Positions 16,580 through 61,084 of a DNA stretch of 64,000 nt are shown here, piece after piece. The stretch's first letter is position 1. Every line of letters starts with the position of its first letter. The notes beneath the pieces are model-generated. The model saw only the letters and a program-made list of their open reading frames with translations, ran no database searches and was not told where the DNA came from. This DNA is from an uncultured Gammaproteobacteria bacterium (GTDB taxonomy: Bacteria; Patescibacteriota; Microgenomatia; UBA12405; JAHJSD01), in NCBI GenBank assembly GCA_964428655.1, contig CAYRYE010000001.1, positions 9,328-73,327 of the forward strand, in the 5' to 3' direction. Both the position numbers and the translations under genes were made by a program.

Positions 16580-16586
16580 GGCTGGT

Positions 16587-18467
16587 TTAAACTTCTACTT
16601 TTATCGGTTGAATTGTTGGTCTTGATTTGGGTGATGGTGGGGTAGTTTTTTCCCTTTTCATTTCTAATAATTCTTCCGGGTTAGAGGTAATTACTTTGTG
16701 TTCGTTGGGAGAAGCAATGACTCGAATAGCCACATGGTTTTTGCCGGCAAAAAAGATTCCTTCACCGATATCAGCTCCCAAAAGCAATTGTCTTTCCCCC
16801 TCAGACAAGTAGAAAACATCAGTAACTTGATCCATGGCTGCCGGGTGCTGTTTGAGCAGTATTTGGATTGAAGAGTTAGTGACGATAGCCTTGCCGTAGT
16901 CAGATTGCAGGAAATCCTGGACATCTTGGGTAATGGTAGTAACGCCAAGATAATATTTCCTTGCCCTTTTGGCTAAGCTGTAAAGGAACTGAGCAGAATC
17001 TTTGTATTTCATTAGATACCAGGCCTCATCAACGACCAAAATGCGTCGTTTCATTTCTCGTCGGATTTTATTCCAAATAAAATCTAGGATAATATACATT
17101 GCTGTTGGTCGAAGGGCTTCCTCAAGATCTCGAATACCAAAGACAACAAATTTGTTTTTAATGTCAACATTAGTTTGAGAGTTGAACAAACCAGCGAATG
17201 AGCCTTTAATGAATTTTTCTAATCGGGCTGCTAAAGAAGCGGCCTTAGGATCTTCCATACCAATTAAGACTTTATAGAGGTCTTCAATTAAGGGCATTTC
17301 TTTTCCTTTTTGAGACTCTGGGTCAAGAGTGATACCTTTCATTTTGTAAGATTGAATTAGGGCTCGATCCAGCAGAGCCTCTTCTTCCGGATTTAACTCA
17401 CCCATAATTACCTTGAATAAGCCGTGAAGAGCCAGAATTTTGCGACCTAATTCATTTTCACTGTTTTCCTGGGAAGAAATTTCTAAATCGAAAGGATTTA
17501 TTTTTGAAGGCGAGTTAAAGCTAAAAGTGATATATTGGCCGCCAACAGCTTTGGCCAAATCCTGGTATTCGTTTTCCGGGTCAATGACCATGATTTCTGT
17601 ACCAAACATTAAAGATCGGAAAACTTCCAGTTTTATCATATAAGATTTTCCTGCGCCCGATTTAGCAAAAACGATAGAGTTCGCGTTTTCCAGGGAGAAT
17701 CGGTCAAAAATAACTAGTGAGCCATTGTGTTCGTTGATGCCGTACATGATTCCTTTGTCGTCAGAAAGATCAGAGGAGACAAAAGGAAAGGTTGTTGCCA
17801 GTGAAGTAGTGTCCATATTGCGAGTAATTTTGAGCAGATCTTGACAAATTGGCAAAGTGGTTTTAAACCCATTTTCCATTTGCAGAGTGGCATGTTTGGG
17901 GATAATTAAAAGTGATCCTAAGTTTGATTCAAGTTCCTTAGTGGTCTGGTTTAACTGGTCAATTGATTTAGCTCCAATAGTGATATAGAGACCGAGCTGG
18001 AAAAATTTCTCAATACCCTTAACCAGCTCTTCTTGCAAGGTAAGTGCATCCTCAAGTTTAGCTTTAGTAGCCGGATTGATTACTCTGCCTCGTTGAATGT
18101 CTGAGGAGAGTTCAGCTTCCATTTCAGCAATTTTGCGACGGAGATCGTCTAAGATTTCTTTACCTTCAGTGGGATAGATATACATGGAAGTATCTAGAGA
18201 GTGGTCGAAGTTGATTAACGATGAAAGCCAATTGGCGGAGACAAACCTGGGGTAGTTAACAATAAAAAGAGTTCGATAGTAACGATTATTAATTCTAACC
18301 CAATCAAAATCGACTTCAATAGCTGAAGGGGCGACAATGTCTTTTACAGAAACCAACCCAGCAGAAAACGAAACAGGTTTAGTTTTGTCAGTTGGATTAA
18401 CTGTTGTTTTTTGGTTTTTGGTTGACTTCTTTACTGGTTTGATTTTGTTGAAAAAATCTAGGATCAT
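16587..18467 (-). CDS. virB4: VirB4/TrbE-like type IV secretion ATPase (core and C-terminal ATPase part)
   Basis: DWVRINNRYYRTLFIVNYP... WL..L entry motif typical of Firmicutes-type VirB4; Walker A AKSGAGKSYMI; Walker B ILVVDEAWYLM. Confidence 0.85.
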   Translation of the reverse strand: MILDFFNKIKPVKKSTKNQKTTVNPTDKTKPVSFSAGLVSVKDIVAPSAIEVDFDWVRINNRYYRTLFIVNYPRFVSANWLSSLINFDHSLDTSMYIYPTEGKEILDDLRRKIAEMEAELSSDIQRGRVINPATKAKLEDALTLQEELVKGIEKFFQLGLYITIGAKSIDQLNQTTKELESNLGSLLIIPKHATLQMENGFKTTLPICQDLLKITRNMDTTSLATTFPFVSSDLSDDKGIMYGINEHNGSLVIFDRFSLENANSIVFAKSGAGKSYMIKLEVFRSLMFGTEIMVIDPENEYQDLAKAVGGQYITFSFNSPSKINPFDLEISSQENSENELGRKILALHGLFKVIMGELNPEEEALLDRALIQSYKMKGITLDPESQKGKEMPLIEDLYKVLIGMEDPKAASLAARLEKFIKGSFAGLFNSQTNVDIKNKFVVFGIRDLEEALRPTAMYIILDFIWNKIRREMKRRILVVDEAWYLMKYKDSAQFLYSLAKRARKYYLGVTTITQDVQDFLQSDYGKAIVTNSSIQILLKQHPAAMDQVTDVFYLSEGERQLLLGADIGEGIFFAGKNHVAIRVIASPNEHKVITSNPEELLEMKREKTTPPSPKSRPTIQPIKVEV

Positions 18468-19182
18468 CTTGTTTTAGCTTTACTCTTCCTTTAATAATAG
18501 CTCCTTGTTGATTTAAAGCGTCAATATTATCAACCAGACTTGATTCCTGATTATAAATCTGATAGAAAAGCTGGATTAACTCTTTGCTTTTAAGCTGTTT
18601 AATTGATAAACCCAGTCTACCAAAAAGACGAATTAAATGTTCTTTTTTGGGTTCTAAAGTTGCCTTAGCTCTTTCCAAGATCTTTTCTTTAGCCATAGGT
18701 AGTGATTTGTTTGTTTGTTTGTTTAATAGTGAGAGTGGGAGAGGCAGACTAGTTTTAACCGCTGTTTGGACTCCTAGTTCGACTGAAAAGAAAGGGATAA
18801 TTATATAGAAAGATTTGGCTAAAACGTTGTTTTTCTTAACTACTTCCTCGACGAATTGGCGATAAAGGATAATCTGTTTTTTCAACAGTGGTTCGTTGAT
18901 TTTAGCCTCTTGTTTTTTGAGACGATTAACATAATTGGAAACATCCTTTAAAGTGGATCGGATCACGATTTGAACTGGAAAAGTAAGTGAGTTGAGCATG
19001 GCGGCGTAAGTGTAGATCATTGCCTCTTGTTCTTTTTCAGAAAGAAGGTCAAAGTTAACTGATGAAGTTTCTAAAATCATAATACAAGACCCATTTTTTA
19101 AAATGGTTAAATCTTCCTTGATGTCTTCGATAGGGAGATGTTCTTGAGTGGTTCCTTTAATAGCAATTTTGTTTAAGTCCAT
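18397..19182 (-). CDS. VirB4 N-terminal-domain-like protein; likely the 5' portion of a split or frameshifted virB4
   Basis: ILETSSVNFDLLSEKEQEAMIYTYAAMLNSLTFPVQIVIRS resembles the N-terminal region of Gram-positive VirB4 ATPases. It overlaps the next ORF by 71 nt in a different frame. Confidence 0.5.
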   Translation of the reverse strand: MDLNKIAIKGTTQEHLPIEDIKEDLTILKNGSCIMILETSSVNFDLLSEKEQEAMIYTYAAMLNSLTFPVQIVIRSTLKDVSNYVNRLKKQEAKINEPLLKKQIILYRQFVEEVVKKNNVLAKSFYIIIPFFSVELGVQTAVKTSLPLPLSLLNKQTNKSLPMAKEKILERAKATLEPKKEHLIRLFGRLGLSIKQLKSKELIQLFYQIYNQESSLVDNIDALNQQGAIIKGRVKLKQDDPRFFQQNQTSKEVNQKPKNNS

Positions 19183-19188
19183 GGGAGC

Positions 19189-20037
19189 TTAGCTCTTGGT
19201 TGTAATTTTTAACGGTGAGATTACTTTGCCTTCTACCTTGATTTTGATTATATCAAACTGATAGCTTTCTTTTTCTGCCAATATTAGGTATTCACCATTG
19301 GCCAGAGGAGTGGCGGTTTTGAATTGTCCTAATTGATTGGTTCGTAAGGCTCGAACCGGGTTTTCAGAGATGTCTTGAATTTCAATAATTACATCTTCCA
19401 TGATTTTTCCGTCTTGATTTGTAACCATACCAACAATAATATTAGGGGTTGTTGGTGGTTGGGGCATAGGTATTTCCCCGAAAGCAGCTTCAATAGTTGG
19501 TTTCGGTGTCACCACAGTTTTAGGAATGTCGATTTCTACTCTAGGAGTGATGGTTGTTTTTCTTTCGGGTGGCTTTTGAATTTGAACAGGAGCAGTAACT
19601 TCTTTTTTCTGATCAGTCTTTTTTTGTTTTTTGGGAAGCGAGGCAAGAAACTCTTCTAATTGAGGTTTTTTTGATATAATGGGCTCTTCTTCTTCTTCTT
19701 CTTCCTCCTCCTCTTCTTTAAAGCTCGTGTCAAAGATATCTAGTGTGGTTAGTTGTTTTTGCCAGAGATAAATTGTTGGCGAAAGGACGCTTTTGACAAA
19801 AGCAAAAATCCAGACCTCTAGTGGTCTTTCATTGACAGGTAAGAAAGCTAGGGCGATTCCAAGGAGGCCAAAACTTAAAACTAAGGGCCATTTTATAATA
19901 AAAGATAGATGACTGGAGTAAAAAATAAAGGCAATAACTAGACCACCGGCAACCTTAAAAAACTGCTTCAAAGTCATATTTCCTACTAGTCGAAACTCGT
20001 AGGAAGAAATTTGTTGTGGGATGGGATGTTGTTCCAT
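19189..20037 (-). CDS. PrgI-family (VirB3-like) membrane protein with poly-Glu linker and C-terminal beta-sandwich (carboxypeptidase-regulatory-like) domain
   Basis: N-terminus ...ISSYEFRLVGNMTLKQFFKVAGGLVIAFIFY plus a second TM helix matches the PrgI/VirB3-like pattern. It sits directly upstream of virB4, as in Gram-positive T4SS. The EEEEEEEEEEE run is encoded by a GAA/GAG repeat at about 19690-19725. Confidence 0.6.
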   Translation of the reverse strand: MEQHPIPQQISSYEFRLVGNMTLKQFFKVAGGLVIAFIFYSSHLSFIIKWPLVLSFGLLGIALAFLPVNERPLEVWIFAFVKSVLSPTIYLWQKQLTTLDIFDTSFKEEEEEEEEEEEPIISKKPQLEEFLASLPKKQKKTDQKKEVTAPVQIQKPPERKTTITPRVEIDIPKTVVTPKPTIEAAFGEIPMPQPPTTPNIIVGMVTNQDGKIMEDVIIEIQDISENPVRALRTNQLGQFKTATPLANGEYLILAEKESYQFDIIKIKVEGKVISPLKITTKS

Positions 20038-23477: not shown

Positions 23478-23780
23478 TTAGAGAATTGTGAGACCGAAAA
23501 TAACTTCGACGATTTGGACAATCCAGTAGGCGGAAAAGACTACTAAAAAACCAATAATGGCAAAGACAATTTTATTGGTTCCTTCTTTAATTCCATTTGG
23601 TTCTCCTCCGGAAGTTAGAAGCTGAAACCCTCCCAATAAAAGATAGACAAACATAGCTAAACCAGCAAAGACCAGAGCATATTTTAAAGTTTCGGAAGCA
23701 ATTCCTCCTAAAGTAGAAACTTCTGGCTTTATACCAACAATTTTAGGATCAGGAATGGTAACTTGGGCAAAAACCTTCAC
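23478..23780 (-). CDS. VirB2/TrbC-like two-helix pilin-type protein (paralog 1 of 8)
   Basis: About 100 aa: hydrophobic helix, GG...SGGEPNGIKEGTNKIVFAIIGFLVV, second helix. N-terminus MKVFAQ.. nearly identical to the paralog at 59707..60045. Confidence 0.55.
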   Translation of the reverse strand: MKVFAQVTIPDPKIVGIKPEVSTLGGIASETLKYALVFAGLAMFVYLLLGGFQLLTSGGEPNGIKEGTNKIVFAIIGFLVVFSAYWIVQIVEVIFGLTIL

Positions 23781-24088
23781 TTTTGTAACCCTGGGATATG
23801 TAAAATGTCAACCCCAATTAGTCTTAATAGAAACAGAGAGAAGATAGCGAGTAGTAAACCAGTAATAGCACTAGTAATTGTTTCTTGCCCTCCTTTGATT
23901 TTTTGAGGATCACCTGCTGAAGTAATAATTAAGATGCCGCCGTAGATTATTAATAAAAAAGCTATACCTCCAATAGCTCCTATCAATCTTGGTAAGAACC
24001 ATTCGATGAAATTATTTGGAGAGTTAATAGGAATACAACCAATAGCGGTATTGATCCCATCTTCTCCACTGCAAAAAATTTGAGCCAT
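23777..24088 (-). CDS. VirB2/TrbC-like pilin-type protein (paralog 2 of 8)
   Basis: ..LLIIYGGILIITSAGDPQKIKGGQETITSAITGLLLAIFSLFLLRLIGVDILHIPGLQK, the same architecture and C-terminal (I/L)L.IP motif as the 58.9-61.1 kb array. Confidence 0.55.
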   Translation of the reverse strand: MAQIFCSGEDGINTAIGCIPINSPNNFIEWFLPRLIGAIGGIAFLLIIYGGILIITSAGDPQKIKGGQETITSAITGLLLAIFSLFLLRLIGVDILHIPGLQK

Positions 24089-41827: not shown

Positions 41828-42484
41828 ATGATAAATAACAAGTCTCTTATTGATCTTTTGTTTCCCAAAAAATGTCTGGTTTGCCGAAAGGCAGGCAGTT
41901 ATCTTTGCCGCCAGTGTCGAGAAGAAACCGTCCTTTTAAAACTCCAAACACATCGGGCTTGTCGAAAAAAGTTTTTAGCTGATGGATTGGTCAGTCTCTA
42001 CCAGTACCGATTTCCCCTAAATAGATTGTTAAAAGATTTTAAGTATTACCAAGTTAGAGATTTGCGTATGCTGATGGTAGATTTAACAGTATCTGCCTTA
42101 ATAAAACAGAGAGTTTTGCCTTTTTGGAAGAAAAATAATTTTGTTTTTATCCCCATGCCTCTTTTTCCAGCTCGTTGTCTTTGGCGGGGCTTTAACCAAA
42201 GCGAAGTTATTTTGGAAACGGTTTGCCAACAACTTAATTTGAAATTTGACAATAGAATTTTGATCCGGAGCAAGTGGACCAAAGAACAAGCCAAGCTTAG
42301 TGGGGAAGAAAGGCGTAAAAACATTATCAATGCTTTCCAAGTTCTGGACGAGAAGAAAGTTATGGGCAATAATTTTGTTGTTTTTGATGATGTCTATACT
42401 AGCGGCTCTAGTTTAAAGGAGGCTATTAAAACTCTTAAATCTTCCGGGGCGATGAAAGTTTGGGGGTTAACCCTTTGCCGCTGA
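41828..42484 (+). CDS. comFC: ComF/ComFC-family phosphoribosyltransferase-domain protein (competence-associated)
   Basis: N-terminal 4-Cys zinc finger LFPKKCLVCRK...CRQC; C-terminal PRTase motif VVFDDVYTSGSSLKEA. Confidence 0.85.
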   Translation: MINNKSLIDLLFPKKCLVCRKAGSYLCRQCREETVLLKLQTHRACRKKFLADGLVSLYQYRFPLNRLLKDFKYYQVRDLRMLMVDLTVSALIKQRVLPFWKKNNFVFIPMPLFPARCLWRGFNQSEVILETVCQQLNLKFDNRILIRSKWTKEQAKLSGEERRKNIINAFQVLDEKKVMGNNFVVFDDVYTSGSSLKEAIKTLKSSGAMKVWGLTLCR

Positions 42485-42523
42485 TTAATTGATAATAATG
42501 GGGATTGAAGGTATAATTCGAGC

Positions 42524-43366: not shown

Positions 43367-43370
43367 TACA

Positions 43371-44681: not shown

Positions 44682-44683
44682 AT

Positions 44684-46536: not shown

Positions 46537-47307
46537 TTTGATTTTTTCAATTTTCCCTTGACAATCAAAACAGTTTTTCCCTTCTCGGTTATAAACTAAA
46601 AAATAGTCTTGATATAAACCCTTGCGACCTAAAGCGTCCAGATAGTATTGGTTAGAAGCGCCGCGATATTTAATACCGGCTTGGAGAACTTTCTCAATCG
46701 CCCGGTAGAGTCTCCTAGCCTCTTTTTCATTAATTTTATTAGCGGCTTGGCAGGGATCAACTTTAGCTAAAAACAAAGCATCATTGGCGTAAATGTTGCC
46801 TATGCCACTGATTTTTTTCTGATCCATTAAAACGATTTTAACAGCCCGTTTAGTGGAAGTGAGAATTTTTTTGAATCGGTTAAAACTGAGATCACTTAAA
46901 GGTTCAGGTCCAAATTCACTGAAGATTTTTTCCAGCTCCTTTTTATCTTTTAGCAATCTGATCCAGCCAAATTTTCGCAGATCGGCAAAACGGAGTTCTT
47001 GATTGCCACTTAAATAGATAGTGATGTGCTGCCATTTATCTGGAGGTTCTTTTCCATTTCGAACTAAAAGCCGGCCTGTTAGTTTAAGATGAATATTTAA
47101 GATCTTATCGTTGTCAAGGAAAATTTGAATAATTTTGGCTCGCCGGCCTACCTTTTTGATTTTGGTACCAATAATAGCTTTCTTTACCTTTTTAAAAGAA
47201 GGCTGGATTTGTTTAGGCGAGTCAGTTTCAATACCTAAGATTTTTTTACCAACAATTAGTTTTGATAGGCCCCGTTTAATGGTTTCAACTTCAGGTAGTT
47301 CCGGCAC
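46492..47307 (-). CDS. mutM: Formamidopyrimidine-DNA glycosylase (Fpg/MutM)
   Basis: N-terminal MPELPEVE catalytic Pro2/Glu3, H2TH, and C-terminal CxxC...CxxC zinc finger. Confidence 0.9.
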   Translation of the reverse strand: MPELPEVETIKRGLSKLIVGKKILGIETDSPKQIQPSFKKVKKAIIGTKIKKVGRRAKIIQIFLDNDKILNIHLKLTGRLLVRNGKEPPDKWQHITIYLSGNQELRFADLRKFGWIRLLKDKKELEKIFSEFGPEPLSDLSFNRFKKILTSTKRAVKIVLMDQKKISGIGNIYANDALFLAKVDPCQAANKINEKEARRLYRAIEKVLQAGIKYRGASNQYYLDALGRKGLYQDYFLVYNREGKNCFDCQGKIEKIKLGGRGTFFCPRCQK

Positions 47308-50841: not shown

Positions 50842-52563
50842 TCAGCTTGATTCTACCCCTCTTAAAAATATTGCTCTCCAAGGCTGGTAAGCGGAATAGA
50901 ATGTTTTTTCGTGGAGAGTGTTTCCATTATTTGTTACTTTCCAGTCAAAAGCCGCCTTAGCGCCCCAGGATTTAAAATCAATTTGTTTGATAACACCTGG
51001 CGGTAAACTTGGGTCATCAATATATAAATCTTCTGGCGGTGGAACAGTACCCCAGAGTTTTATATTACTAATTTCCACTTTCCGGCCATCAGGTGAGCCG
51101 TAAAATTGAAAGGCAAGATAGTAATTTTTACGATCAAATTCTCTTTGGATAAGAATATAATTGCCGGTATCATTTTTAAATTTTAAATCACTTGTTGGAG
51201 AAAAGACGGTAGCGTCAAATCCCGGCTTTGAATTTTGTTCATAATAAGAGACTCGGTAGGCATGAGGGTGACGCTCAATAATAGGTAAACCAGTATTAAT
51301 TGCTGCTCGGAAAAGCGTGGTCGAGACTTGACAAACGCCGCCGCCGTCTCCCAAAACCGTTCGGCCCTCCTTAATTATATAGGCTTCACGATAACCAGTG
51401 GCTTTGGAGATATCTCCTAGGGCCTTGTTAAGAGAGAAAGTTTCTCCAGGATTAATTAGAATGCCGTTTAATTTATTAGAAGCTAGATCAACATTATGGA
51501 TTCTGGAAGTGATTGAGTGGCTGAAATATGATTCCCCCTCTCCAATCAGATCAACGATTCCTAATCGATTAGTATCAGGGGTTTTAATCTCGGGATCAAT
51601 TTTTCTGACTAATAATTCTTTAACACTCTTACTTTCGCCATTAATTAACTCATCCAATGCCTGTTCAATTAAATCACCAGCTTTCTCCTGGTTTAACTCA
51701 AAACCATCCTGGCCTGGTTTAAAGGCAGTTACTTTGCCGTGCTCAAATTTGAAAAGAGCGTCTTGGGCCGGTCGATTAATAGATTGAGTTAAGACTTCTA
51801 CATATTCGTTGATTTTTTCCCTGTCCCATTGGGAAGAAAAACTGACAAAATTGATTAATTGCACATCTTCGATAACAAAATTTTGTTGAGGACTGCTGAA
51901 GATAATTGTTTTGCCAATTAGTTTTTCCGCTTGCTCTTTGGCAAGTTTTATTTGATTTTCAGAAGGAAGGTTGTTTAGTTCCTTAACGACCAGATCAGCA
52001 GGTTGATCAATTTCAAAAGAAACAATTTTACTAAAAATAACCTTTCTTGAGGTTTTAGCATCAAGTTCCTTTCCCAACTTTCCCTCGCTGACAGTAACTT
52101 CTTTAGTTTTTTGATCAAAAGAAAGTTGAGTGGGAATAGCAGGCTGATAAATTTGGGCGGCAATTGTTGCCAGCTTTTCATCTAAAAGGCTTTCTTCTAA
52201 AGAAAATTCCAGGCTGATATATTTGGCTTTAAATTGGTTTTTGGCCGGGCTTCTTCGGAAAAGATAATATGCTGTTTGGGCAGTTTTCTGAGAATCTATT
52301 TGCAGATTTATTTCTTGTAAATCTATTTCCCAAGATTGGTTATTATGAGTCAAGTTCAATTTAAGACCTTTTTCTGTTTGAACTTTTCCATCAATAGCTT
52401 TTTTAGCTTGTTCAATAGTTAAACCACTGACATTAATATCATTTATCCAGGTTTTAGGATATATTCTGTTTTTATAAGCTAATAGAAAAGCCCCTAGGAT
52501 TGTAATTGGTAATCCAAGAGCAACAATGATTAGACTAAAAAAAATCGCCCTTTTCCAGCGCAC
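50842..52563 (-). CDS. VanW-family protein (cell-wall associated) with N-terminal TM anchor
   Basis: GGGVCQVSTTLFRAAINTGLPIIERHPH is the conserved VanW core. Confidence 0.75.
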   Translation of the reverse strand: MRWKRAIFFSLIIVALGLPITILGAFLLAYKNRIYPKTWINDINVSGLTIEQAKKAIDGKVQTEKGLKLNLTHNNQSWEIDLQEINLQIDSQKTAQTAYYLFRRSPAKNQFKAKYISLEFSLEESLLDEKLATIAAQIYQPAIPTQLSFDQKTKEVTVSEGKLGKELDAKTSRKVIFSKIVSFEIDQPADLVVKELNNLPSENQIKLAKEQAEKLIGKTIIFSSPQQNFVIEDVQLINFVSFSSQWDREKINEYVEVLTQSINRPAQDALFKFEHGKVTAFKPGQDGFELNQEKAGDLIEQALDELINGESKSVKELLVRKIDPEIKTPDTNRLGIVDLIGEGESYFSHSITSRIHNVDLASNKLNGILINPGETFSLNKALGDISKATGYREAYIIKEGRTVLGDGGGVCQVSTTLFRAAINTGLPIIERHPHAYRVSYYEQNSKPGFDATVFSPTSDLKFKNDTGNYILIQREFDRKNYYLAFQFYGSPDGRKVEISNIKLWGTVPPPEDLYIDDPSLPPGVIKQIDFKSWGAKAAFDWKVTNNGNTLHEKTFYSAYQPWRAIFLRGVESS

Positions 52564-52647
52564 GGTTAGTATTATATAACATTAGCTGTTCACTAATTAC
52601 TATTTTCCCTTGTAGCATTTAAACCGAGGTGGTAAAATAAAACCCAA

Positions 52648-54552
52648 ATGGGGGAACGAGATGAAATGCACATGATGGAAGAGGCCTCACGTCTTGGAGA
52701 ACAGTATAGGGAAATTGCATATGAGGGAATAATCTACGAAGAGAGAATTTTAGAGGCTTTAAAGTGGAAAACTGCAGAACAAGTTAATCTTGGGTGGTTG
52801 GAGGAAGTTATAGACGAGGGTCTTGCCTATCAAATGGGCAGATTGACAGAGAGATATGGCTACACTCTAAGTTCCGATGGTCCAGCCGCTTGGGAGTTAA
52901 CGAGACTGACAAGATTATTTTGTACTGTCGAGGAAGCCAGAGACAGGCCGATTACCAAAATTGCTGCGGCGGTAACAAGGGCGACTTTAGAAAATCTTGA
53001 CCGCCTAGGAAGAGACGAAATTGCGGGTTTCGATGGTGATGAAGCCGGGGAGGAAGACGGAGAAAAGTCAGGGCTTCAGTGGTATGATGTTTTGGCAGTT
53101 TCAGAAGCGGAAAGGGATAATCCCAAGTATGATGGCTGGCGAAGTCTGACAGCCAAAGAAGCTTTTAGGTTTAAATTATATGAGCTTCATGCTCGAGCAA
53201 CAGCAATTTTAAACATTACTACGGTTGACCAACAAGTTATGTTAGCTGCTGATGATGCTCAGGCTATGGTTGATTTGGTTTTAAGACAAAAGGATCTTCA
53301 TTTTCTAGACACTATTACTCCTGATTCCATGGTTTGGAAAGCTGCTTTTTCTGGTGAGTGGGGAGAGAAAGTTGATAGGGCTTTGTGGTTGATTGATGTG
53401 GTAGGAAGAGAAGGTTTTAGGTATGTTGATGAAAATAAAGAGAGTCGACATCTCAAAAAACCTTTTGCCGACAGTAAGGAATTTTCTGACGAAAGGGTCT
53501 TTGCCAATTTCATGAAAAGACTATATAAAGCTGCCGGTCGGGATATGAGTGCTGCTTTGTTTGCTTGGCAATTAGCTCGTGGTGTTTGGGGCATAATTGG
53601 CGAGTACGGATATACTGTAAAGGAGGAAGAAAAAAATGTTTGGAATCATAAGGGTGAACATTTAGGGAAGAAGAAAGTTAAAGTTCATAAAATTGGCGAT
53701 TCTCCATTTGTAACTAATCACCAAACTTGGACAATGCATACAGGCGCAAAAAGAGCGGCTGAATGGGGAATAACATGTTATGACCAAGTTGCTCATCCCC
53801 GAGGTGAGGAATTTCCTTTTCTTACTACCTATAGATTTGCTTTAGGTGGTTCTTTTGTTTCTCATGCGGGTTTGCCTTATTCTTTAGGTATTACAAAAGA
53901 TAAGGAATTGCTACAATTGCTACCCTCTTATTTAAAATCGGCAAAAATTGATTATGAAGGAAAGAAAGTTAGTCTTTACGATCTTTGGTCCGGGGAAATT
54001 ACAGGCAAAAGGATTCCTTTAGGTAAGTTGCCCTGGGGTGAAACACAAAGGGTTGAAACTGGTACTGATGAATCACTGCCTCTTGCCTCATTTGGCTTAT
54101 GGAGGTCTCTTCACTCGCGCGCTTTAGCAGTGGTTACCAAGCTGTTAAGAGGAAATCCACCGCTAAGAGATCTTACTTCAGAAGAATTTTGGCAAGGTTC
54201 AGTTTTTAGGCATCTTGCAAAAGTAACTCCAATTAATAATATTCCTGGCGACAGTGAGTATACCAAGCCTTCTGAGAGCTTTAGAACCAGACTGGTGTTA
54301 AGCTGGATATTAGCGAGAAGACCGTCCCTTTCCACAGACAAGGGATTGCTTGTTTTTCACTATGTTCACCCAGATGAACAATGGAAGGGCGTAAATGCTG
54401 ATGATTCGCCAGTCTCAGTAGCTAGAATACTCTGGCACGCGGTAAACACAAGCTTTCTTCGAGATAAAGACTTTGATTGGATAATGGAACAAGTGAAGGA
54501 GGTAGTTACTCTCACCCACGGAGAAAAGGCAGCCTTCTACAAAAAATCTTGA
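52648..54552 (+). CDS. Hypothetical cytoplasmic protein (634 aa), compositionally atypical (GC-richer, Glu/Trp/Arg-rich)
   Basis: Long uninterrupted ORF; no TM or signal peptide; no recognised motifs. Its codon usage visibly differs from neighbours, with many G/C-ending codons. Confidence 0.5.
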   Translation: MGERDEMHMMEEASRLGEQYREIAYEGIIYEERILEALKWKTAEQVNLGWLEEVIDEGLAYQMGRLTERYGYTLSSDGPAAWELTRLTRLFCTVEEARDRPITKIAAAVTRATLENLDRLGRDEIAGFDGDEAGEEDGEKSGLQWYDVLAVSEAERDNPKYDGWRSLTAKEAFRFKLYELHARATAILNITTVDQQVMLAADDAQAMVDLVLRQKDLHFLDTITPDSMVWKAAFSGEWGEKVDRALWLIDVVGREGFRYVDENKESRHLKKPFADSKEFSDERVFANFMKRLYKAAGRDMSAALFAWQLARGVWGIIGEYGYTVKEEEKNVWNHKGEHLGKKKVKVHKIGDSPFVTNHQTWTMHTGAKRAAEWGITCYDQVAHPRGEEFPFLTTYRFALGGSFVSHAGLPYSLGITKDKELLQLLPSYLKSAKIDYEGKKVSLYDLWSGEITGKRIPLGKLPWGETQRVETGTDESLPLASFGLWRSLHSRALAVVTKLLRGNPPLRDLTSEEFWQGSVFRHLAKVTPINNIPGDSEYTKPSESFRTRLVLSWILARRPSLSTDKGLLVFHYVHPDEQWKGVNADDSPVSVARILWHAVNTSFLRDKDFDWIMEQVKEVVTLTHGEKAAFYKKS

Positions 54553-54588
54553 GGAGTTTTTTAAGGAAGTAAAGTAAATGGTTTAATT

Positions 54589-56112
54589 TTATCTACCTTG
54601 TAGTTTCCTTAGGAGTGCTTCGTATAAGACATCTATGCCTTTCGCTGGCCCTCCTTTAGTCACAACTTCGCTACCACTACCTTTCTTTTCATATCCCAAT
54701 CGTTGTCCGTATTTACCTCTTGCTATAGCTGACCTTACTGATGGAGCGGCACCCATGAGTCCGTATTTAGCACCTGTTTTAACTGGCCCGAATGCCTCGC
54801 CGATGGCGGTGCCAAATCCTGGATCTTTTATTCCCATGGCGTTTCTTATTATATCAGGAATTTGGGCTAAAATTAACAAAAATCCCATGCCGATGATGGT
54901 TTTGATGAAAAACGCAGATCTGGAACCGGTTACGTCTAACAGGGGAGCGGCCCACATTGATTCTAAATTAGCTGATTGAAGAATAAAGACACCAATCATA
55001 GACACAACGACTACTGCCGGAAAAATTAGAATTTCAGCAAAGATTCCCTTTATCCAAGTGCCGAACCCACCGGCTTGGAAACCAGGGATGGCCCCCATCA
55101 TTATCTGGAGCGGTCCTATGATAACAGCAAAAATAATTTTTATATATGCTTTAGTTAGTCCAAATAATAATTTAAAAAGCAAAAACAAAGCGATAACTGT
55201 CCAAATTAACATTATCAAGGCTGGTCCAGCAAGTAAGCCGATAGCAGCTCCAATCAAAAATTGTCCTCCTATGAGGGTACCGATGACAGTGCCAACAACG
55301 CCGCCAAGAGCTGTTGCAAGTACGAATATACCATTTCCTGCATTAGTAACGGAAAAAAACATTGGCAAAAGAGCGAAAAAGCCGCTATTAATGACTCTGG
55401 TAGGCGTGACCTCGCCTAGTTTCACCGGGCCCAATTGAAACAGTACTGGTTCAATGCCGCCTGTTTTTAAAACTGTAATCCCAAGGGCTATTAAGACATA
55501 CATTAGATCAATCAAAAATCCGGCGATGGCGTAGGAGAAGGTGACTAAAATCAAGGCGCCGATGATTTTGGGCAAAGCGTTTTCAATGGTGATGACAGCT
55601 TGGGGCGATATTTTTACCCGGAACATAATCGCTAGACCGATGCCAACAAAGATAAGAGTAAAAAGAACATAAGTAACATTTCTAAAAGCTTTCCAAATAG
55701 GCAGGATTGGCTGTAAACCGGTGAAACCAACTCCTTGAGCGTAGGCTGGCGCCGCTCCCAAACGATGTAAAACATCATAGGCATAGTAAACTCCTGAAGC
55801 CGGTGGATTAGCGTAAACAGCGCCAATTAAATTAGTGGTGAATTGAAGAGCGCCTATTTCCTGTTTTATTTTTCCTGATTGGGTTCCTTCAGGTGAACCT
55901 TCTCCAGTTCCAGCCATGTTTTTCAAAAAGCCAAAAACAGTATCACTTAAAGTATGTTCATGAAGTCCTTCAGCCGTTAATTTATCTTTATTATTTAAAT
56001 AGTCTTCGTAGCTTGAAGCAGCAAAGGTGAGTTTGAGAGAACCAGCAATAAGAACGCTGAAACAAAAAAATAAGAAGCTTAAACTGATGATTTTCTTTGC
56101 TTTTCTATTCAT
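54589..56112 (-). CDS. VirB6/TrbL-like polytopic membrane protein (putative T4SS channel component)
   Basis: Signal peptide, about 100-aa periplasmic region, then 7-9 Gly/Ala-rich TM helices and a short cytoplasmic tail; genomic context next to the pilin array and virB-like genes. Confidence 0.45.
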   Translation of the reverse strand: MNRKAKKIISLSFLFFCFSVLIAGSLKLTFAASSYEDYLNNKDKLTAEGLHEHTLSDTVFGFLKNMAGTGEGSPEGTQSGKIKQEIGALQFTTNLIGAVYANPPASGVYYAYDVLHRLGAAPAYAQGVGFTGLQPILPIWKAFRNVTYVLFTLIFVGIGLAIMFRVKISPQAVITIENALPKIIGALILVTFSYAIAGFLIDLMYVLIALGITVLKTGGIEPVLFQLGPVKLGEVTPTRVINSGFFALLPMFFSVTNAGNGIFVLATALGGVVGTVIGTLIGGQFLIGAAIGLLAGPALIMLIWTVIALFLLFKLLFGLTKAYIKIIFAVIIGPLQIMMGAIPGFQAGGFGTWIKGIFAEILIFPAVVVVSMIGVFILQSANLESMWAAPLLDVTGSRSAFFIKTIIGMGFLLILAQIPDIIRNAMGIKDPGFGTAIGEAFGPVKTGAKYGLMGAAPSVRSAIARGKYGQRLGYEKKGSGSEVVTKGGPAKGIDVLYEALLRKLQGR

Positions 56113-56154: not shown

Positions 56155-58932
56155 TTATAAAGGCGACCCCTGCCATTCGGCAGGAGTATTGTATAAACTC
56201 CATAATTTTTTAGTTAATTCCAGACTGCCTCCCGGAGCATAAAGTTTTCTCCCTTCATCTCTTTGTATATCTGTATGGCCGCTAATAGCGTCTGGTTTTT
56301 CAAGCCAATGTTTCTCCTCATCTATGGACTCCAGTGAGGAACCCCCGCCGGTTCCGTTAAATTTAGCTTCTATCGGCAAATTTTTGGCGTTGACTTTTTT
56401 ACCGTTAGCCTCTTCAATTTCATATACAAGTTGGTCTGCAATCTCTCCAATTTGGAGTCCGAAAAGATAATTTGTACATTGAAGGACTTTATTATAATTA
56501 GTGACATAAAGAGTATCTCGGGAGGTGACTCTTGCTTCTGCAGTACAACGATTAGGAACATCTTCGTCATTGTAATTAACAGAACAATTGTCCACTTTGA
56601 ATGAATCAGGGAATAGTAGATTTCTTGCTTCCCTAGCCAAACCAGTTGGATTGTCGTAATCTTCATTGGCTTTATTGGTAGTCGGTCCGTTGGCTTTTAC
56701 TCCTTTACCGAGATCGCAGGGGAAATAGAAACGGCTTCTATCTGTTTCTGAAAGACTGGTGTGCAGCTCGGCTGGCAAGCTCATACCTGCCATTCTCGAA
56801 CAGGCTTCGACAGCGCCAAGAGCGTTGGGGATAAAAAGTTTTGCTACCTGGCAAATCTGGCATTGATCATCAACGTCGGTTATAAAGCTGTTTCTTATTG
56901 GTTCGTCGTTGACTTTGACAGGCAATACCCGGTACCTTTGTTGTGGACTTAACTGACCAAAATAACTGCTAAAAACCTCATTGCCTTCTTCTCTTTTACA
57001 TTTACTTTCTTTTGTAGGGTAGCAGGATTCAAGGTAAACCGGCAGATCAGAGTGGCTAATTCCTCCATCTATAGTCATCTGAGCCCAAGTATAAAAGCCA
57101 TAAAGAGCCGCATCCATAGTTTTCGGTATCAAACAAGCCCACTGAGGTGTGTGGGCACACATTGCTTCATAATTTAAATCATTTTCTATAAAATGTTGTT
57201 CATTACAACAATACAGAAGACTTGGTCTAACGGGAATAGGATTGGATGTACACCCGTCAACATTGACTCTGTCAATTCTTCCATCGTCCATTTTTTCAGT
57301 AAAGTCTTTTTCCAACAACATTCCTTTTCCTTCGCAGATCCAAAACAACGGTCGGTCAAAAAGAGCTGTTTCATTCCTTTGTTGAGGAGATCTTGGATCG
57401 TCTGATACTGCCGCCCAAAGTAAGTCATTAGTGATCCAATCAGTGCCTAACTCTCTATATTTCGGCCCAGAAATATATTTACTGGCAAATCCGGTTAAAC
57501 GTTGACTTCTTCTTTTAGCTAGTTCTTCCCAACCGCCTTCTTTGAAAACATCAACGTAGGGCATGTTTCCTCCATAAGCAGAACCAGTATACCAATCAAT
57601 TATTTCTTGAAAGACTTTTAAACCGGCAAAAACATGATGATGGATGGAGAGTTGGTTTATTAGTTCAATAGAGAGTTCAGAGGAATGATGGGTGGGGAAA
57701 AATTTGAACTGGTGGGTAATTATGTTTGATGAGGGGACACAGAATTCAGCCATTCCGTTGTTGAATTCTATAGCCCTTTTATATAATGCGTAATTAATAT
57801 TTGGATCTTCTCCCGGATAGGTATTGTCTTTATCGGAAGGTACCCAATCCAGGCTCCAGGGAAGACGAAACAGATTTCCTAGCCCAGGAATAAAGCTGAA
57901 GAGTCTTTGGAGCAAAGAAGGCTCGTTATTCGGAGTTGAATTACCAGGAAACCAGTTGCGGTTTACTTTAGCCTCGTCCCAGGAAGCTTCTCTGGTTGAG
58001 CGGTTGAGAGCGCCTTCAACCAGACTGCGAAGGGACGGTTTACCTCCGCTTTTGCAGGTGTCGCAGTGGCAATCTCCTTTCAAGGCGTCAATGACACAGT
58101 CAGCATCCCAAAGATTCCATGATCCGCTGTAATCACCAGGAGCAAAAGAAAAAATTGCCCAGCCAATGATATTCTGAGATTGCCAGAAATCAACTACTGT
58201 TTGGCCGTCGGCGCCGGCGCAATACATATTACAGAGGTCATTTTCTTGATAGGTTGGCGGACCGCTTTCACCATTTTCCAAGGCGCCGGTTTCGGTTAGA
58301 ACTACTGGCAGAGAGCCAGCTCCCCTAACTCCCAGTTCACCTAGCTTATTCCGGTAATTTCTAGCCATGCCCGGAGAATAAATATGCATGGAAATAACAG
58401 AGTAGGGGATATTTTCTAACAAGCCAACCATCGTTGGAGTATTTGGATGGTATGGATCCCAAGCCGGTGAGGTTAAAATGGCATTGGAAGGCAAAACACT
58501 AGCCAAAGTATTAATATATTTTTTTACTCTACTACCACATTCTTGTAAAGATAAATTGCCGCATTCAGTGTCCAATCGGGCTGGTTCGTTCCAGGGTTCA
58601 AAATAGACTGTTTTATTAATTTTCTTTAAAAAATTAGCCCAGATATTGGCTGCCTCTTGAGGATTATTAAGCATTTTATCGCCTATTGGCAGCCAGTGGC
58701 TGTGGCCGCGGATAACCCAATTAAAGGAGGAAGAGTTGATTACATTAACCAACGCATCGCTTTTAGGATCGGCGGCAACGACTACCAAGGCTCCGTCGCC
58801 AAAATGCTCTTGGATTTTATTAATAGTATTTCCACTCCAATCATTAATAATATTGACATAGGCAAAAGTTTTAACAACAGATAACAGGTAACAGGTGGTA
58901 ATGGAAAGTAGGAAGATTGAAAACTTTTTCAT
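56155..58932 (-). CDS. Secreted 925-aa Cys-rich protein with N-terminal glycoside-hydrolase-family-5-like TIM-barrel domain
   Basis: Signal peptide MKKFSIFLLSITTCYLLSVVKTFA. GH5 acid/base signature VYFEPWNEP and nucleophile LPVVLTETG. The C-terminal ~600 aa has more than 30 Cys. Confidence 0.55.
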   Translation of the reverse strand: MKKFSIFLLSITTCYLLSVVKTFAYVNIINDWSGNTINKIQEHFGDGALVVVAADPKSDALVNVINSSSFNWVIRGHSHWLPIGDKMLNNPQEAANIWANFLKKINKTVYFEPWNEPARLDTECGNLSLQECGSRVKKYINTLASVLPSNAILTSPAWDPYHPNTPTMVGLLENIPYSVISMHIYSPGMARNYRNKLGELGVRGAGSLPVVLTETGALENGESGPPTYQENDLCNMYCAGADGQTVVDFWQSQNIIGWAIFSFAPGDYSGSWNLWDADCVIDALKGDCHCDTCKSGGKPSLRSLVEGALNRSTREASWDEAKVNRNWFPGNSTPNNEPSLLQRLFSFIPGLGNLFRLPWSLDWVPSDKDNTYPGEDPNINYALYKRAIEFNNGMAEFCVPSSNIITHQFKFFPTHHSSELSIELINQLSIHHHVFAGLKVFQEIIDWYTGSAYGGNMPYVDVFKEGGWEELAKRRSQRLTGFASKYISGPKYRELGTDWITNDLLWAAVSDDPRSPQQRNETALFDRPLFWICEGKGMLLEKDFTEKMDDGRIDRVNVDGCTSNPIPVRPSLLYCCNEQHFIENDLNYEAMCAHTPQWACLIPKTMDAALYGFYTWAQMTIDGGISHSDLPVYLESCYPTKESKCKREEGNEVFSSYFGQLSPQQRYRVLPVKVNDEPIRNSFITDVDDQCQICQVAKLFIPNALGAVEACSRMAGMSLPAELHTSLSETDRSRFYFPCDLGKGVKANGPTTNKANEDYDNPTGLAREARNLLFPDSFKVDNCSVNYNDEDVPNRCTAEARVTSRDTLYVTNYNKVLQCTNYLFGLQIGEIADQLVYEIEEANGKKVNAKNLPIEAKFNGTGGGSSLESIDEEKHWLEKPDAISGHTDIQRDEGRKLYAPGGSLELTKKLWSLYNTPAEWQGSPL

Positions 58933-59300
58933 GGTCCTGGGATTTTAAACTCAGTGACATTTGCTCCGGTGAACTCTTTAATCAAAATCAAGATAAACCA
59001 GCCAGCAATAGTTAAAACTAAACCGATTATGGCAGTGGTAAGAGTGTTTTTAGCTGACTGTAATCCCTTTTGTTCACCACCAGCAAAGATTAATTTAAAA
59101 CCACCAACAATCAGCATTGCTCCAAAAGCCAAGCCGGCGATGGTAGTGGCTATTCTCAAAATGTTGATAAATAGACACTGAAAACCTTGAAGGGTGGCAA
59201 CAGTGGGGTCGGTAGCACTAACACAGTCTCCACTCCAAAATACGGGATCAGCTGCAAAAACTGGTCCCCAAAAGACAATTCTTTTCTTGAGATAATTCAC
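58929..59300 (-). CDS. VirB2/TrbC-like pilin-type protein (paralog 3 of 8)
   Basis: ...MLIVGGFKLIFAGGEQKGLQSAKNTLTTAIIGLVLTIAGWF...FKIPGP. Confidence 0.5.
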   Translation of the reverse strand: MNYLKKRIVFWGPVFAADPVFWSGDCVSATDPTVATLQGFQCLFINILRIATTIAGLAFGAMLIVGGFKLIFAGGEQKGLQSAKNTLTTAIIGLVLTIAGWFILILIKEFTGANVTEFKIPGP

Positions 59301-59303
59301 TGT

Positions 59304-59669
59304 TTATCCTTGCAGACTGGGAATTTCTAGTTGCAGAATATTGATTCCAAACAGAGCTTCAATCAATTTTATAATTGCCCAGGCAACGAAAATAATGGCC
59401 AAACCAATCAAAGCATGAGTGATTTGGTTTCGGGCATTTTCGACCTCTGTCTTATCACCTTTAGACGTGATCCATCGAACTCCGCCCCAGATCAAAATGG
59501 CAAAAAATACCAAGGCGACAATAACCAAGACCAATCGGATCAATCCAGAAACAACACTGGCAATTGTTAAACCGCCAAGAGCACTAAATTGTCCTCCAGG
59601 AGAAATATCAATTGGTTCTTGGGCCCAAGCGGGTTTTGCTATTAGAGCCATTAGTTTTTCCATGTTCAC
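59304..59669 (-). CDS. VirB2/TrbC-like pilin-type protein (paralog 4 of 8)
   Basis: ...FAILIWGGVRWITSKGDKTEVENARNQITHALIGLAIIF...INILQLEIPSLQG. Confidence 0.5.
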   Translation of the reverse strand: MNMEKLMALIAKPAWAQEPIDISPGGQFSALGGLTIASVVSGLIRLVLVIVALVFFAILIWGGVRWITSKGDKTEVENARNQITHALIGLAIIFVAWAIIKLIEALFGINILQLEIPSLQG

Positions 59670-59706
59670 CTCCTTTCAAGAATGCGACATACAACAATTT
59701 TATAAA

Positions 59707-60045
59707 TTATAATTGTGGTAGAGTAATTTGCAGGTTCTCAAATCCACTTAAACCGAAAACAAATCCAATTATTCTAATAATAGCAAAGATGGAAAAAACA
59801 ACCAAGAGGCCAACAAGAGCAAAAGTTAGCTGTTTTTGGGCTTCTTCAATTTTGTTTTTCTCTCCCTGACTATTGATCCACTTAAGTCCTCCCAGTAAAA
59901 AGTGAACTAGGAAGAAAAAGAAGCCGACGATAATTAACCAATGAATAAGAAACGGCAGAGCGCGATTGAAAAAATCAACACCTTCTAAATTTTTTACTGA
60001 GTCTTTTAAAACCGGATTTTCTAACCCTTGGGCAAAGATTTTCAT
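59707..60045 (-). CDS. VirB2/TrbC-like pilin-type protein (paralog 5 of 8)
   Basis: MKIFAQ... HFLLGGLKWINSQGEKNKIEEAQKQLTFALVGLLVVF...LQITLPQL. Confidence 0.5.
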   Translation of the reverse strand: MKIFAQGLENPVLKDSVKNLEGVDFFNRALPFLIHWLIIVGFFFFLVHFLLGGLKWINSQGEKNKIEEAQKQLTFALVGLLVVFSIFAIIRIIGFVFGLSGFENLQITLPQL

Positions 60046-60047
60046 CT

Positions 60048-60470
60048 CTATGGCGTTAACCTATTAATTGCTCCTGGAATATCCAGGAAATCAACATGCA
60101 GTAAATGGCCAACTAAAGATAGTAAGAAAATAGCGGCAATAACGACGGCAAGACCGATTAGTGAATTGGTAATTTTCTTTTGAGCGTCTTGAATTTTCTG
60201 AGCTTCGCCGCCGGCGGAAACCAAGTTGTAGCCAGCGATAATGATTTGAACAATGAACCAAATCCCGGCAACAGTAGTCATCAAACCAATGACAATGGAG
60301 ACAGCTCTGCTGAACATTTTTCCTCCCTCGCCAGCCCCTTCTCCTTCAAGTCCGAGAGGTCCAATTCCTCTTAACGGTGGTAAGTCCTTAGGAACTTGGG
60401 CTAAAACTGATTTGGTAATTTTACTGAGGTCCATAGATTTTTGGTAACAAAATTGCGTCCCAATTCCCAA
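60048..60470 (-). CDS. VirB2/TrbC-like pilin-type protein (paralog 6 of 8; start may be internal)
   Basis: ...IIIAGYNLVSAGGEAQKIQDAQKKITNSLIGLAVVIAAIF...FLDIPGAINRLTP. Confidence 0.5.
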   Translation of the reverse strand: MGIGTQFCYQKSMDLSKITKSVLAQVPKDLPPLRGIGPLGLEGEGAGEGGKMFSRAVSIVIGLMTTVAGIWFIVQIIIAGYNLVSAGGEAQKIQDAQKKITNSLIGLAVVIAAIFLLSLVGHLLHVDFLDIPGAINRLTP

Positions 60471-60801
60471 AAATTAAACGTCCGAAAATTGCTGCTAGAG
60501 TAAACGATCCGGCTGCCACCAGCAATCCAAGTGAGCTTAACCAAATTTTAGCCCAAGCGTTGGTGATTTTCTGAGCATCACCGTTGGCGCTCATGAAGCC
60601 ATAACCGGCAATAATAAAATTAAGAAGAGCAAAAATGCCGGCCCCAACAACTAAAAGTTTAAGGATATTATTAAGAAATGTAATCAGACCCTCACCTCCC
60701 GTTCCGGAGTACTTATCTACCCCGGGAGGGGGTTTAATCTGGCCAAAAAAGTTGGCGGCTAGAGCCGGTTGGTTAAAAAGGCGCTTCAAGGATATTGACA
60801 C
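60421..60801 (-). CDS. VirB2/TrbC-like pilin-type protein (paralog 7 of 8)
   Basis: ...FIIAGYGFMSANGDAQKITNAWAKIWLSSLGLLVAAGSF... Confidence 0.5.
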   Translation of the reverse strand: MSISLKRLFNQPALAANFFGQIKPPPGVDKYSGTGGEGLITFLNNILKLLVVGAGIFALLNFIIAGYGFMSANGDAQKITNAWAKIWLSSLGLLVAAGSFTLAAIFGRLIFGNWDAILLPKIYGPQ

Positions 60802-61084
60802 CAGTGATTACTTGAATTAATTGAATAACAAAATAACTGACAAAAATAACAACAAATCCGGCAACAGCAGATGTAACAGCCTTTTGTCCTTTTTGTACTT
60901 TACTGCTGTCTTGGTTTCCTGCTCCGATGATAATGCTAATGCCGCCAAAAATCAAGAGAAAAAGAAAAATTATGCCCGCCAGTCCGTAAATATTAAAAAG
61001 AATGGTTGAAAAAAATTCACCCAGGGTGCCAAATTTATCAGCAACTCCGTATTCTTTACCAATATCAACGGCAAAAACTTGCAT
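60773..61084 (-). CDS. VirB2/TrbC-like pilin-type protein (paralog 8 of 8; trimmed to internal Met MQVFAVD..)
   Basis: ...LIFGGISIIIGAGNQDSSKVQKGQKAVTSAVAGFVVIFVSYF...NILEAPF. The 200-aa form in the track would overlap the SBP gene on the other strand. Confidence 0.5.
   Translation of the reverse strand: MQVFAVDIGKEYGVADKFGTLGEFFSTILFNIYGLAGIIFLFLLIFGGISIIIGAGNQDSSKVQKGQKAVTSAVAGFVVIFVSYFVIQLIQVITGVNILEAPF

Follow-up and report, generated by a model that had tools for sequence, protein, structure and literature searches.

The 64-kb stretch of DNA analyzed here (64,000 nucleotides of contig CAYRYE010000001.1, assembly GCA_964428655.1; hereafter the window) carries a type IV secretion system (T4SS)-like pilus locus from the candidate phyla radiation (CPR), and our subject is a plus-strand gene within it at 52648..54552. 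The gene is an ATG-to-stop open reading frame (ORF) encoding a soluble, acidic, Trp-rich protein of 634 amino acids from an unnamed CPR family; we refer to the gene and its family as FAM. Both coordinates and length agree exactly with those given in an earlier note on this DNA. Upstream and divergent from FAM lies a minus-strand gene for a VanW/PG_binding_4 protein (50842..52563; Pfam E = 2.4e-43 and 6.7e-21), which is the VanW flank that the earlier note had named, and downstream and convergent lies a minus-strand gene for a polytopic membrane protein of 507 amino acids, TM507 (54589..56112). The 84 nt between VanW and FAM (52564..52647) are A/T-rich and presumably hold FAM's own promoter; a consensus scan of this region found no promoter-like site, and a Shine-Dalgarno-like GAGGTGG lies 15 nt 5' of the FAM ATG. 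The stop codons of FAM and TM507 are separated by 36 nt (54553..54588) in which no significant hairpin was found (fold z-score -0.13), and neither the promoter/terminator consensus scan nor the folding of this convergent gap gave anything above shuffled sequences.

Hydropathy analysis of the FAM protein found neither a transmembrane (TM) segment nor a signal-like N-terminus: the grand average of hydropathy (GRAVY) was -0.46, the net charge -12, and the maximum Kyte-Doolittle 19-residue mean 1.10. Walker A and HExxH motifs are absent from its sequence, and the protein had zero matches in Pfam, NCBIfam, PHROGs, PADLOC, and PDB sequences. Profile searches of the protein and its family against PDB sequences, NCBIfam, PHROGs, and PADLOC returned isolated chance-level matches only. 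Compared with the window, several amino acids were raised, including Glu (9.0% vs. 6.5%), Arg (6.6% vs. 4.6%), Trp (3.3% vs. 1.4%), Asp (6.3% vs. 3.8%), and His (2.7% vs. 1.2%), and Ile (3.9% vs. 8.7%) and Asn (2.2% vs. 4.2%) were lowered. These results bear out the earlier description of a soluble, motif-free, Glu/Arg/Trp-rich product lacking a signal peptide and TM segments, and the protein is predicted from its sequence to be cytoplasmic and globular.

To place FAM in its genomic setting, we gathered 35 extra loci from metagenomes by a pattern scan with a 12-sequence sub-alignment, called their ORFs, and searched these with iterated hidden Markov models (HMMs) built from the T4SS-like proteins of the window. 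A convergent TM507 homolog was the next downstream gene in every one of the 33 non-redundant loci with at least 300 bp of downstream sequence, with a stop-to-stop gap of 1–268 nt, and wherever the downstream flank reached 6 kb or more, a pilin array followed (13 of 13 loci). On the other side, a PrgI-like gene was found no more than three genes upstream in 22 of 35 loci (directly upstream in 10 of 35), and a VirB4-like gene no more than six genes upstream in 9 of 14. In the relatives at 38% identity the order was VanW (-), FAM (+), a 504–520-amino acid membrane protein (-), a 1159–1165-amino acid protein (-), pilins (-), SBP, GroES, and GroEL. More distant members, at about 22–30% identity to the window protein, were central in complete T4SS-like loci adjoining dnaA and dnaN: these ran from an M23 or large protein through VirB4-like (-), TraC-like (-), and PrgI-like (-) genes to FAM (+), and onward through a 541–566-amino acid membrane protein (-), in some cases a large protein, and six to nine pilins (-) to SpoIID (+). 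In all cases the family gene formed a separate transcription unit, running opposite to the rest of the T4SS genes and tail-to-tail with TM507. FAM is thus a fixed member of the CPR T4SS-like pilus locus whose closest tie is to TM507, and the association with a T4SS/pilin locus that the earlier note had proposed is stronger than anticipated there.

Rearrangements and insertions in these loci concentrated upstream of the family gene, and each time the gene remained with TM507. Where the locus was split or interrupted (in the window clade and in loci L010, L031, L043, and L051), it was TM507, rather than the ATPase module, that FAM accompanied. The window itself provides such a case, as the other half of its T4SS-like locus is detached and lies 32.6 kb from FAM on the minus strand (13946..20037), adjoining dnaN and dnaA. 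This module comprises an 877-amino acid protein together with three genes assigned by Pfam as VirB4-like ATPase (16587-18467), TraC-like (18397-19182), and PrgI-like (19189-20037), all on the minus strand; genes of these four types stand directly upstream of FAM in L013, L014, L021, L022, and L040. Two further T4SS_pilin genes (23478..24088, minus strand) remain at the "old" end of the split locus, beside SpoIID and a 618-amino acid plus-strand protein. We considered this last ORF (24146-26002) as a possible paralog of FAM and ruled it out by phmmer and the family HMM; no second copy of the family was found in the window, and the family is single copy per locus.

The upstream side of the family gene also receives insertions of a recurrent kind. 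A PhdYeFM and PIN pair is inserted just upstream of it in L010 (2892-3589), AbiEii, HepT/MNT, and AAA_14-DUF4143 genes are inserted upstream in L051 (8528-17466), and a run of small genes is inserted upstream of position 10001 in L031; a 23S_rRNA_IVP gene is also among the genes inserted in this set of three loci. This hot spot of toxin-antitoxin or defense-type insertions coincides with the breakpoint of the split locus in the window clade.

The pairing was also examined in reverse, using two loci selected by TM507 alone: one from a Shapirobacteria genome and one from a Woesebacteria scaffold. The Shapirobacteria locus had a 590-amino acid family member convergent to TM507 (E = 7e-136). In the Woesebacteria locus, the slot convergent to TM507 was occupied by a soluble acidic protein of 678 amino acids (L052:10199-12235, minus strand), to which we return below.

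FAM had been called an orphan in the earlier note, a description that does not hold. A word-indexed search gave four full-length relatives at 38–40% identity; the same search run with a 51-sequence profile recovered only the five known close members. An exhaustive HMMER search of 1.84 billion representatives with a profile of the close relatives recovered, at E ≤ 1e-3, 59 clusters defined at 50% identity, of which 49 reached E ≤ 1e-10. The 59 cluster representatives were 488–760 amino acids long, apart from one 91-amino acid fragment, and identities to the window protein ranged down to about 22%. None of the 51 aligned members (51/51) had a Pfam match, and NCBIfam and PADLOC searches over the aligned members gave nothing meaningful. 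The only family carrier with a taxon name was a Candidatus Shapirobacteria genome, a lineage of the Microgenomates group. Near-invariant residues, in the numbering of the window protein, were G64, E95, R187, R197, P225, D226, F234, G239, F285, A306, W307, E372, G374, G408, P410, L429, L443, P462, W463, W485, R491, P504, R521, K525, R546, and A598; a further near-invariant family position, Tyr 273, is Phe in the window protein.

Two familiar T4SS-associated classes were tried and rejected for FAM. A conjugative relaxase was rejected, as no member had an HUH or relaxase Pfam match, there was no PDB match, and the family's only near-invariant Tyr, at position 273, is Phe in the window protein, which argues against a relaxase-type catalytic Tyr. 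A coupling protein (VirD4/TraG) or VirB11 ATPase was likewise rejected given the lack of a Walker A motif or P-loop, of a TM anchor, of any Pfam match (51/51 members), and of a PDB match.

The earlier note had regarded FAM as compositionally foreign, rich in G/C-ending codons, and atypical in codon usage. Against a baseline of 53 non-overlapping window ORFs of at least 100 amino acids, from which spurious rRNA-internal ORFs were excluded, FAM was compared with the other 52. Its total GC content was 0.422, compared with 0.379 ± 0.029 for the rest (z = 1.5, rank 4 of 53), so that the gene is modestly GC-richer, as had been seen by eye, but hardly differs from the neighboring T4SS genes (0.417 and 0.421). 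The excess lay at the first codon position (GC1 0.527 vs. a mean of 0.468, z = 1.4, rank 4 of 53) and the second (GC2 0.409 vs. 0.352, z = 1.1, rank 8 of 53). At the third position FAM was ordinary, with a GC3 of 0.331 compared with 0.319 ± 0.043 (z = 0.28, rank 22 of 53), or with a mean of 0.325 when the comparison was restricted to ORFs of at least 300 amino acids (z = 0.18, rank 11 of 23). The synonymous codon-usage distance from FAM to the rest of the window was 0.111, the 7th lowest among the 23 long ORFs. When the protein was re-encoded using the window's codon preferences, GC content came to 0.432 ± 0.006 and GC3 to 0.347 ± 0.017, and the observed values are slightly lower than these. 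The small excess at codon positions 1 and 2 arises because the protein is rich in Glu, Asp, Arg, Gly, Ala, Trp, and His and poor in Ile, Asn, Lys, and Gln: the GC excess of FAM is a matter of amino acid content, not of G/C-ending codons or foreign origin. This bias is shared by the family as a whole. In the 12 genomes with sufficient flank, family members were Trp-richer than their neighbor genes in 12 and GC-richer in 10 (mean difference +0.021), and the GC3 difference averaged -0.010 and was positive in 5. Neither the G/C-ending codons nor the atypical codon usage was therefore borne out, and a gene that by eye looked GC-rich and foreign proved native, a tempting misreading that these statistics correct. 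The earlier note had also foreseen the opposite outcome, in which codon statistics would be normal and the protein would be a conserved housekeeping family; the statistics are indeed normal, but the family, though conserved, is specific to this locus rather than housekeeping.

Recent horizontal acquisition, also raised in the earlier note, is refuted because synteny is conserved and GC3 is normal. The family gene kept its slot and orientation in all related loci examined, from 38% down to about 25% identity, so that a check for presence or absence in related genomes finds it at the same junction each time, and the exact window protein is also present on contigs of 428 kb and 548 kb. Around FAM we found only short, imperfect, chance-like flanking repeats; the nearest tRNA is 18 kb away, and no integrase or mobility genes flank it. 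Among 72,556 plasmids and 50,697 phage genomes, tblastn detected no family relatives; the pattern scan with the 12-sequence sub-alignment found none in IMG/VR viral contigs. It appears very improbable to us that FAM instead arrived recently, as a foreign gene or islet that owes its place between VanW and the T4SS genes to chance. Its total GC content is the highest among window ORFs of at least 300 amino acids, its strand is opposite to that of both neighbors, it lacks annotation, and the area upstream of the family gene is a site of insertion and rearrangement in other genomes, all of which would fit such an origin; the typical GC3 and codon usage, the GC content shared with the adjacent T4SS genes, the orthologs in the same slot, and the absence of mobility features or of relatives on mobile DNA do not. 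FAM is a native, vertically inherited gene.

We used AlphaFold2 to model the window protein. With only the five close sequences as input the model was unusable (predicted local distance difference test score, pLDDT, of 45), and the 51-sequence alignment was used instead, giving a model with a pLDDT of 88.5, a predicted TM-score (pTM) of 0.89, and 425 residues at or above 90. The predicted fold is a single compact alpha/beta unit followed by a tail at residues 621–634 that is predicted to be disordered. Foldseek found no match to this model in the PDB (the best had E = 0.23 and a TM-score of about 0.1) and none in BFVD, so that the remote-homology and structural searches proposed in the earlier note ended with neither a PDB sequence match nor a PDB or BFVD fold match. 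The same note had suggested looking for charge patterns like those of T4SS secretion signals at the C-terminus, and here the result was mixed. The tail is predicted to be disordered, and the five close members end in a common F/Y-Y-[KR] motif; in three of the five, the final 25 residues carry a net charge of +4 to +5. Family-wide, however, there is no basic tail: the proteins stop right past the last conserved helix (GFLRxxDxxWI) with a typical net charge of about +1 over the last 25 residues, and the last 30 residues of the window protein have a net charge of 0.

FAM diverges quickly. Between the window and the related loci L005 and L007, identity was 38% for the family protein, compared with 33–36% for a neighboring 925-amino acid protein, 40–41% for Fpg, 46–53% for TM507, 52% for VanW, 52–54% for DUF4012, 59–65% for RNase H, 42–73% for the pilins, 62% for SBP, and 74% for GroES. 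Among the distant loci, mean pairwise distances were 0.63–0.65 for the family, 0.68–0.70 for TM507, 0.54 for the PrgI-like protein, and 0.32 for the VirB4-like protein. The family is thus fast-evolving, in step with TM507.

TM507 carries a TM or signal segment at its N-terminus, plus about six to seven further hydrophobic segments. Its family is large, with at least 1207 clusters at 90% identity, and the named carriers are Candidatus Shapirobacteria, Candidatus Woesebacteria, and "Patescibacteria group bacterium". The earlier note had called this neighbor VirB6-like. Its position and its polytopic topology agree with that description, but TM507 itself had no Pfam match and no PDB sequence relative, and no TrbL/VirB6 or PrgH Pfam match was found in 16 TM507 members at E ≤ 1. 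TM507 fits VirB6 by locus position and topology, not by sequence. VirB6 homologs have been described as "scarce" in Microgenomatia, and "extreme sequence divergence" has been suggested (PMC12102498).

Beyond TM507, the 925-amino acid protein (56155..58932, minus strand) lies between it and the pilins and has a hydrophobic N-terminus, many Cys residues, and no Pfam match or PDB relative. Homologs of it were detected only in the close clade, and elsewhere its position is filled by unrelated-looking proteins of 500–1100 amino acids. Its "WNEP" and "LTETG" sequences recall the acid/base and nucleophile motifs found in clan GH-A glycoside hydrolases; a GH-A glycosidase that degrades wall or host polysaccharide was considered for it and found to be unsupported by Pfam and PDB sequence searches. 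Six small VirB2-like T4SS pilin genes follow (58929..61084, minus strand; PF18895 matches). On the upstream side, VanW precedes the family gene only in the close clade (L005, L010, and L011), and a PrgI-like gene stands there in distant loci; VanW is outside the conserved T4SS core.

What FAM does at this locus is the point on which several readings compete. The one we favor, although in our judgment it is evenly balanced between being right and wrong, is that FAM serves the CPR T4SS-like pilus machine as a lineage-specific accessory protein in the cytoplasm, in partnership with TM507. As an accessory subunit or assembly factor, it would act at the cytoplasmic face of a machine containing TM507 and VirB4, for example in a docking or platform role for pilin or substrate handling. 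Such a role may be comparable to that of the hydrophilic domains fused to "extended VirB6" proteins elsewhere, and it would suit a system without a locus-encoded coupling protein. The cytoplasmic, globular part of this proposal is supported by the lack of TM or signal segments, the compact model with a pTM of 0.89, and the presence of one copy per locus. A more specific formulation, in which FAM is a novel-fold cytoplasmic component of the Microgenomates-type CPR T4SS that binds TM507 and recruits substrate or loads pilin, or else is a conserved translocated cargo, we put forward tentatively, as the less probable version.

Several points weigh against an accessory role. A physical interaction between FAM and TM507 is putative, and no fold or motif offers a biochemical handle on the family. 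The 678-amino acid protein in the Woesebacteria slot had no match to the family HMM, an hhalign probability of 0.1% with the family, and no Pfam match. The slot is therefore conserved beyond the detectable family, whether through extreme divergence or because an unrelated gene took it over, and a strictly required subunit would be expected to stay recognizable, which this slot protein does not. FAM also outpaces most of its neighbors in divergence (38% identity vs. 46–74%), and mirror-tree comparisons of FAM with TM507, PrgI, and VirB4 gave inconsistent partial r values, from 0.06 to 0.47 depending on the control protein (n = 10–12). No form of the family fused to a membrane domain was found, the 59 representatives all being 760 amino acids or shorter, and no ortholog was visible in the cluster of S. 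epibionticum (Saccharibacteria) that has been tested by transposon sequencing (Tn-seq). Finally, synteny alone cannot separate a component of the machine from a conserved substrate or regulator.

A conserved substrate or effector is indeed the next possibility to consider: FAM could be a cytoplasmic protein that is recruited to TM507 and VirB4 and exported to a host bacterium or to the cell surface, a dedicated cargo encoded beside its channel gene. We consider this unlikely, but it deserves serious attention. The protein is soluble with no Sec signal and no housekeeping annotation, its gene is a transcription unit of its own within the locus, and it is among the faster-evolving genes of the neighborhood (38% identity). 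The disordered last 14 residues, together with the F/Y-Y-[KR] end and the positive charge in three of the five close members, would suit a secretion signal, and the unrelated-looking soluble protein in the Woesebacteria slot resembles what an exchangeable cargo slot would hold. Yet the basic tail is not conserved across the family (about +1 over the last 25 residues), the window protein has a tail charge of 0, and no toxin, enzyme, or eukaryote-like domain was found. One copy of fixed size and position, maintained to about 22% identity, is also at odds with effector repertoires, which are usually variable. No type IV coupling protein (T4CP) gene was seen within 10 kb on either side of the family gene, and T4CPs are mostly absent near virB4 in Patescibacteria (PMC12102498).

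The geometry of the locus bears on two further readings, each of which we judge improbable and to much the same degree. If FAM were a locus-specific regulator or chaperone for the pilin paralogs or TM507, not itself part of the assembled machine, its placement between two opposed operons, with divergent promoter geometry toward PrgI/VirB4 in most loci, would make sense, as would its solubility, its acidity, and its tight linkage to TM507 and the pilin array. However, none of 51 members belonged to a helix-turn-helix (HTH), DNA-binding, or chaperone family, the structural searches matched no known regulator or chaperone, and a single compact fold of 550–760 amino acids is large for a dedicated regulator. 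Alternatively, FAM could have an unrelated cytoplasmic function, such as an enzymatic or nucleic acid-handling one, and owe its synteny to genome compaction and shared ancestry. The near-invariant charged residues E95, R187, R197, D226, E372, R491, R521, K525, and R546 could form an active or binding site, and small CPR genomes can conserve the order of unrelated genes, as dnaA, dnaN, and SpoIID at the flanks of this locus illustrate. The linkage to TM507, however, survives every rearrangement seen, whereas other linkages do not; moreover, no enzyme family or fold was detected, and the substitution of Phe for the near-invariant Tyr at position 273 runs contrary to a catalytic Tyr of the relaxase type. 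A component of the pilus machine that works with TM507 remains the reading we prefer for FAM.

The remainder of the window and its relatives yielded several observations in their own right. The 23S (215-3024, minus strand) and 16S (21109-22588, plus strand) rRNA genes are unlinked, on opposite strands and about 18 kb apart, with tmRNA, dnaA, dnaN, and the T4SS ATPase module between them; no 5S rRNA was detected in the window. The metagenome-assembled genomes of L008 and L009 (GCA_964498425.1 and GCA_964493745.1), which carry the closest relatives, are titled "uncultured Gammaproteobacteria bacterium", a label that is probably wrong, as their content is CPR-like (T4SS pilin arrays, DUF4012, VanW, and the same synteny). 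The DUF4012 gene is intact in the window (47307-50093, minus strand; 928 amino acids) and in L002 (4660-7398; 912 amino acids), but in the near-identical contig L001 (4859-7446) it is split into pieces of 147 and 706 amino acids, by either strain-level disruption or assembly error. At 41828-46536 on the plus strand, the window encodes a DZR_2 zinc-ribbon protein, a 7TM_transglut membrane protein, and three ATP-grasp proteins (RimK/ATPgrasp_ST), a cluster conserved in relatives that is a putative peptide-ligase or modification system. Lastly, the VirB4-like ATPase of the Woesebacteria locus (L052:15271-18936, plus strand; 1221 amino acids) contains an intein with a LAGLIDADG homing endonuclease domain.

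The T4SS of CPR is itself already known, and in the single lineage open to genetics, epibiotic growth cannot proceed without the CPR T4SS-like pilus (PMC10633639). The substrate, the energizing or recruiting parts, and the VirB6 equivalent of the Microgenomates system are unsettled (PMC10633639, PMC12102498). FAM is a concrete candidate for a missing machine component or cargo, being soluble, locked to TM507, and confidently modeled in a fold with no PDB match; if it is either, it would represent a new class of T4SS-associated protein with a fold absent from the PDB. Neither the family nor its invariant pairing with the protein in the VirB6 position is described in the main texts consulted on the CPR T4SS.

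Compared with known systems, the locus is recognizably a CPR T4SS cluster, a type that is related to the MPF-FATA conjugation systems of monoderms (Quinonero-Coronel et al., 2025, PMC12102498). It shares with these clusters the PrgI/VirB3-like, TraC/TrsD-like, and VirB4-like proteins, the M23 or lysozyme-type hydrolase, the large polytopic protein, and the divergent arrays of VirB2-like pilins, and in distant loci it often stands beside dnaA/dnaN. Like most Patescibacteria T4SS clusters, which are without a coupling protein or relaxase (PMC12102498), it showed neither in the locus. The window clade departs from the typical cluster in having a divided locus whose ATPase module stands 32.6 kb off, and, unlike in the published descriptions of CPR T4SS consulted, where no such protein is mentioned, the loci contain a conserved soluble protein of about 600–700 amino acids on the opposite strand. 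VirD4/TraG/PcfC and VirB11 proteins are likewise cytoplasm-facing and of similar size, but FAM has no Walker A motif, TM anchor, or Pfam or PDB match. FAM also resembles VirB/D4-type effectors in being soluble, lacking a Sec signal, being encoded in a T4SS locus, and having a disordered tail, which in the close clade ends in a basic F/Y-Y-[KR]; it is unlike them in that the family as a whole does not conserve this tail, which lacks a basic character in the window protein, and in its single copy, fixed position, and lack of an effector domain.

The comparison that bears most closely on an accessory role is with VirB6. Elsewhere, extended VirB6 proteins carry large hydrophilic domains whose role is unknown (PMC12857230, summarizing Alvarez-Martinez and Christie, 2009), and there the soluble domain is part of the protein in the VirB6 position, whereas FAM is a stand-alone soluble protein tied genetically to a polytopic protein of about 500 amino acids. 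No fused form of the family was found, and the likeness is one of analogy only. The T4SS cluster of Southlakia epibionticum (SEML1_0006-0019) is essential (Wang et al., 2023, PMC10633639) and includes two VirB6-like proteins of about 1000–1090 amino acids with soluble ARM-like domains (PMC10633639 supplement). No stand-alone soluble gene of this kind is present in that cluster; its soluble domains are instead fused to the VirB6-like proteins, so that a split-versus-fused relation between FAM/TM507 and the S. epibionticum VirB6-like proteins would be an attractive analogy.

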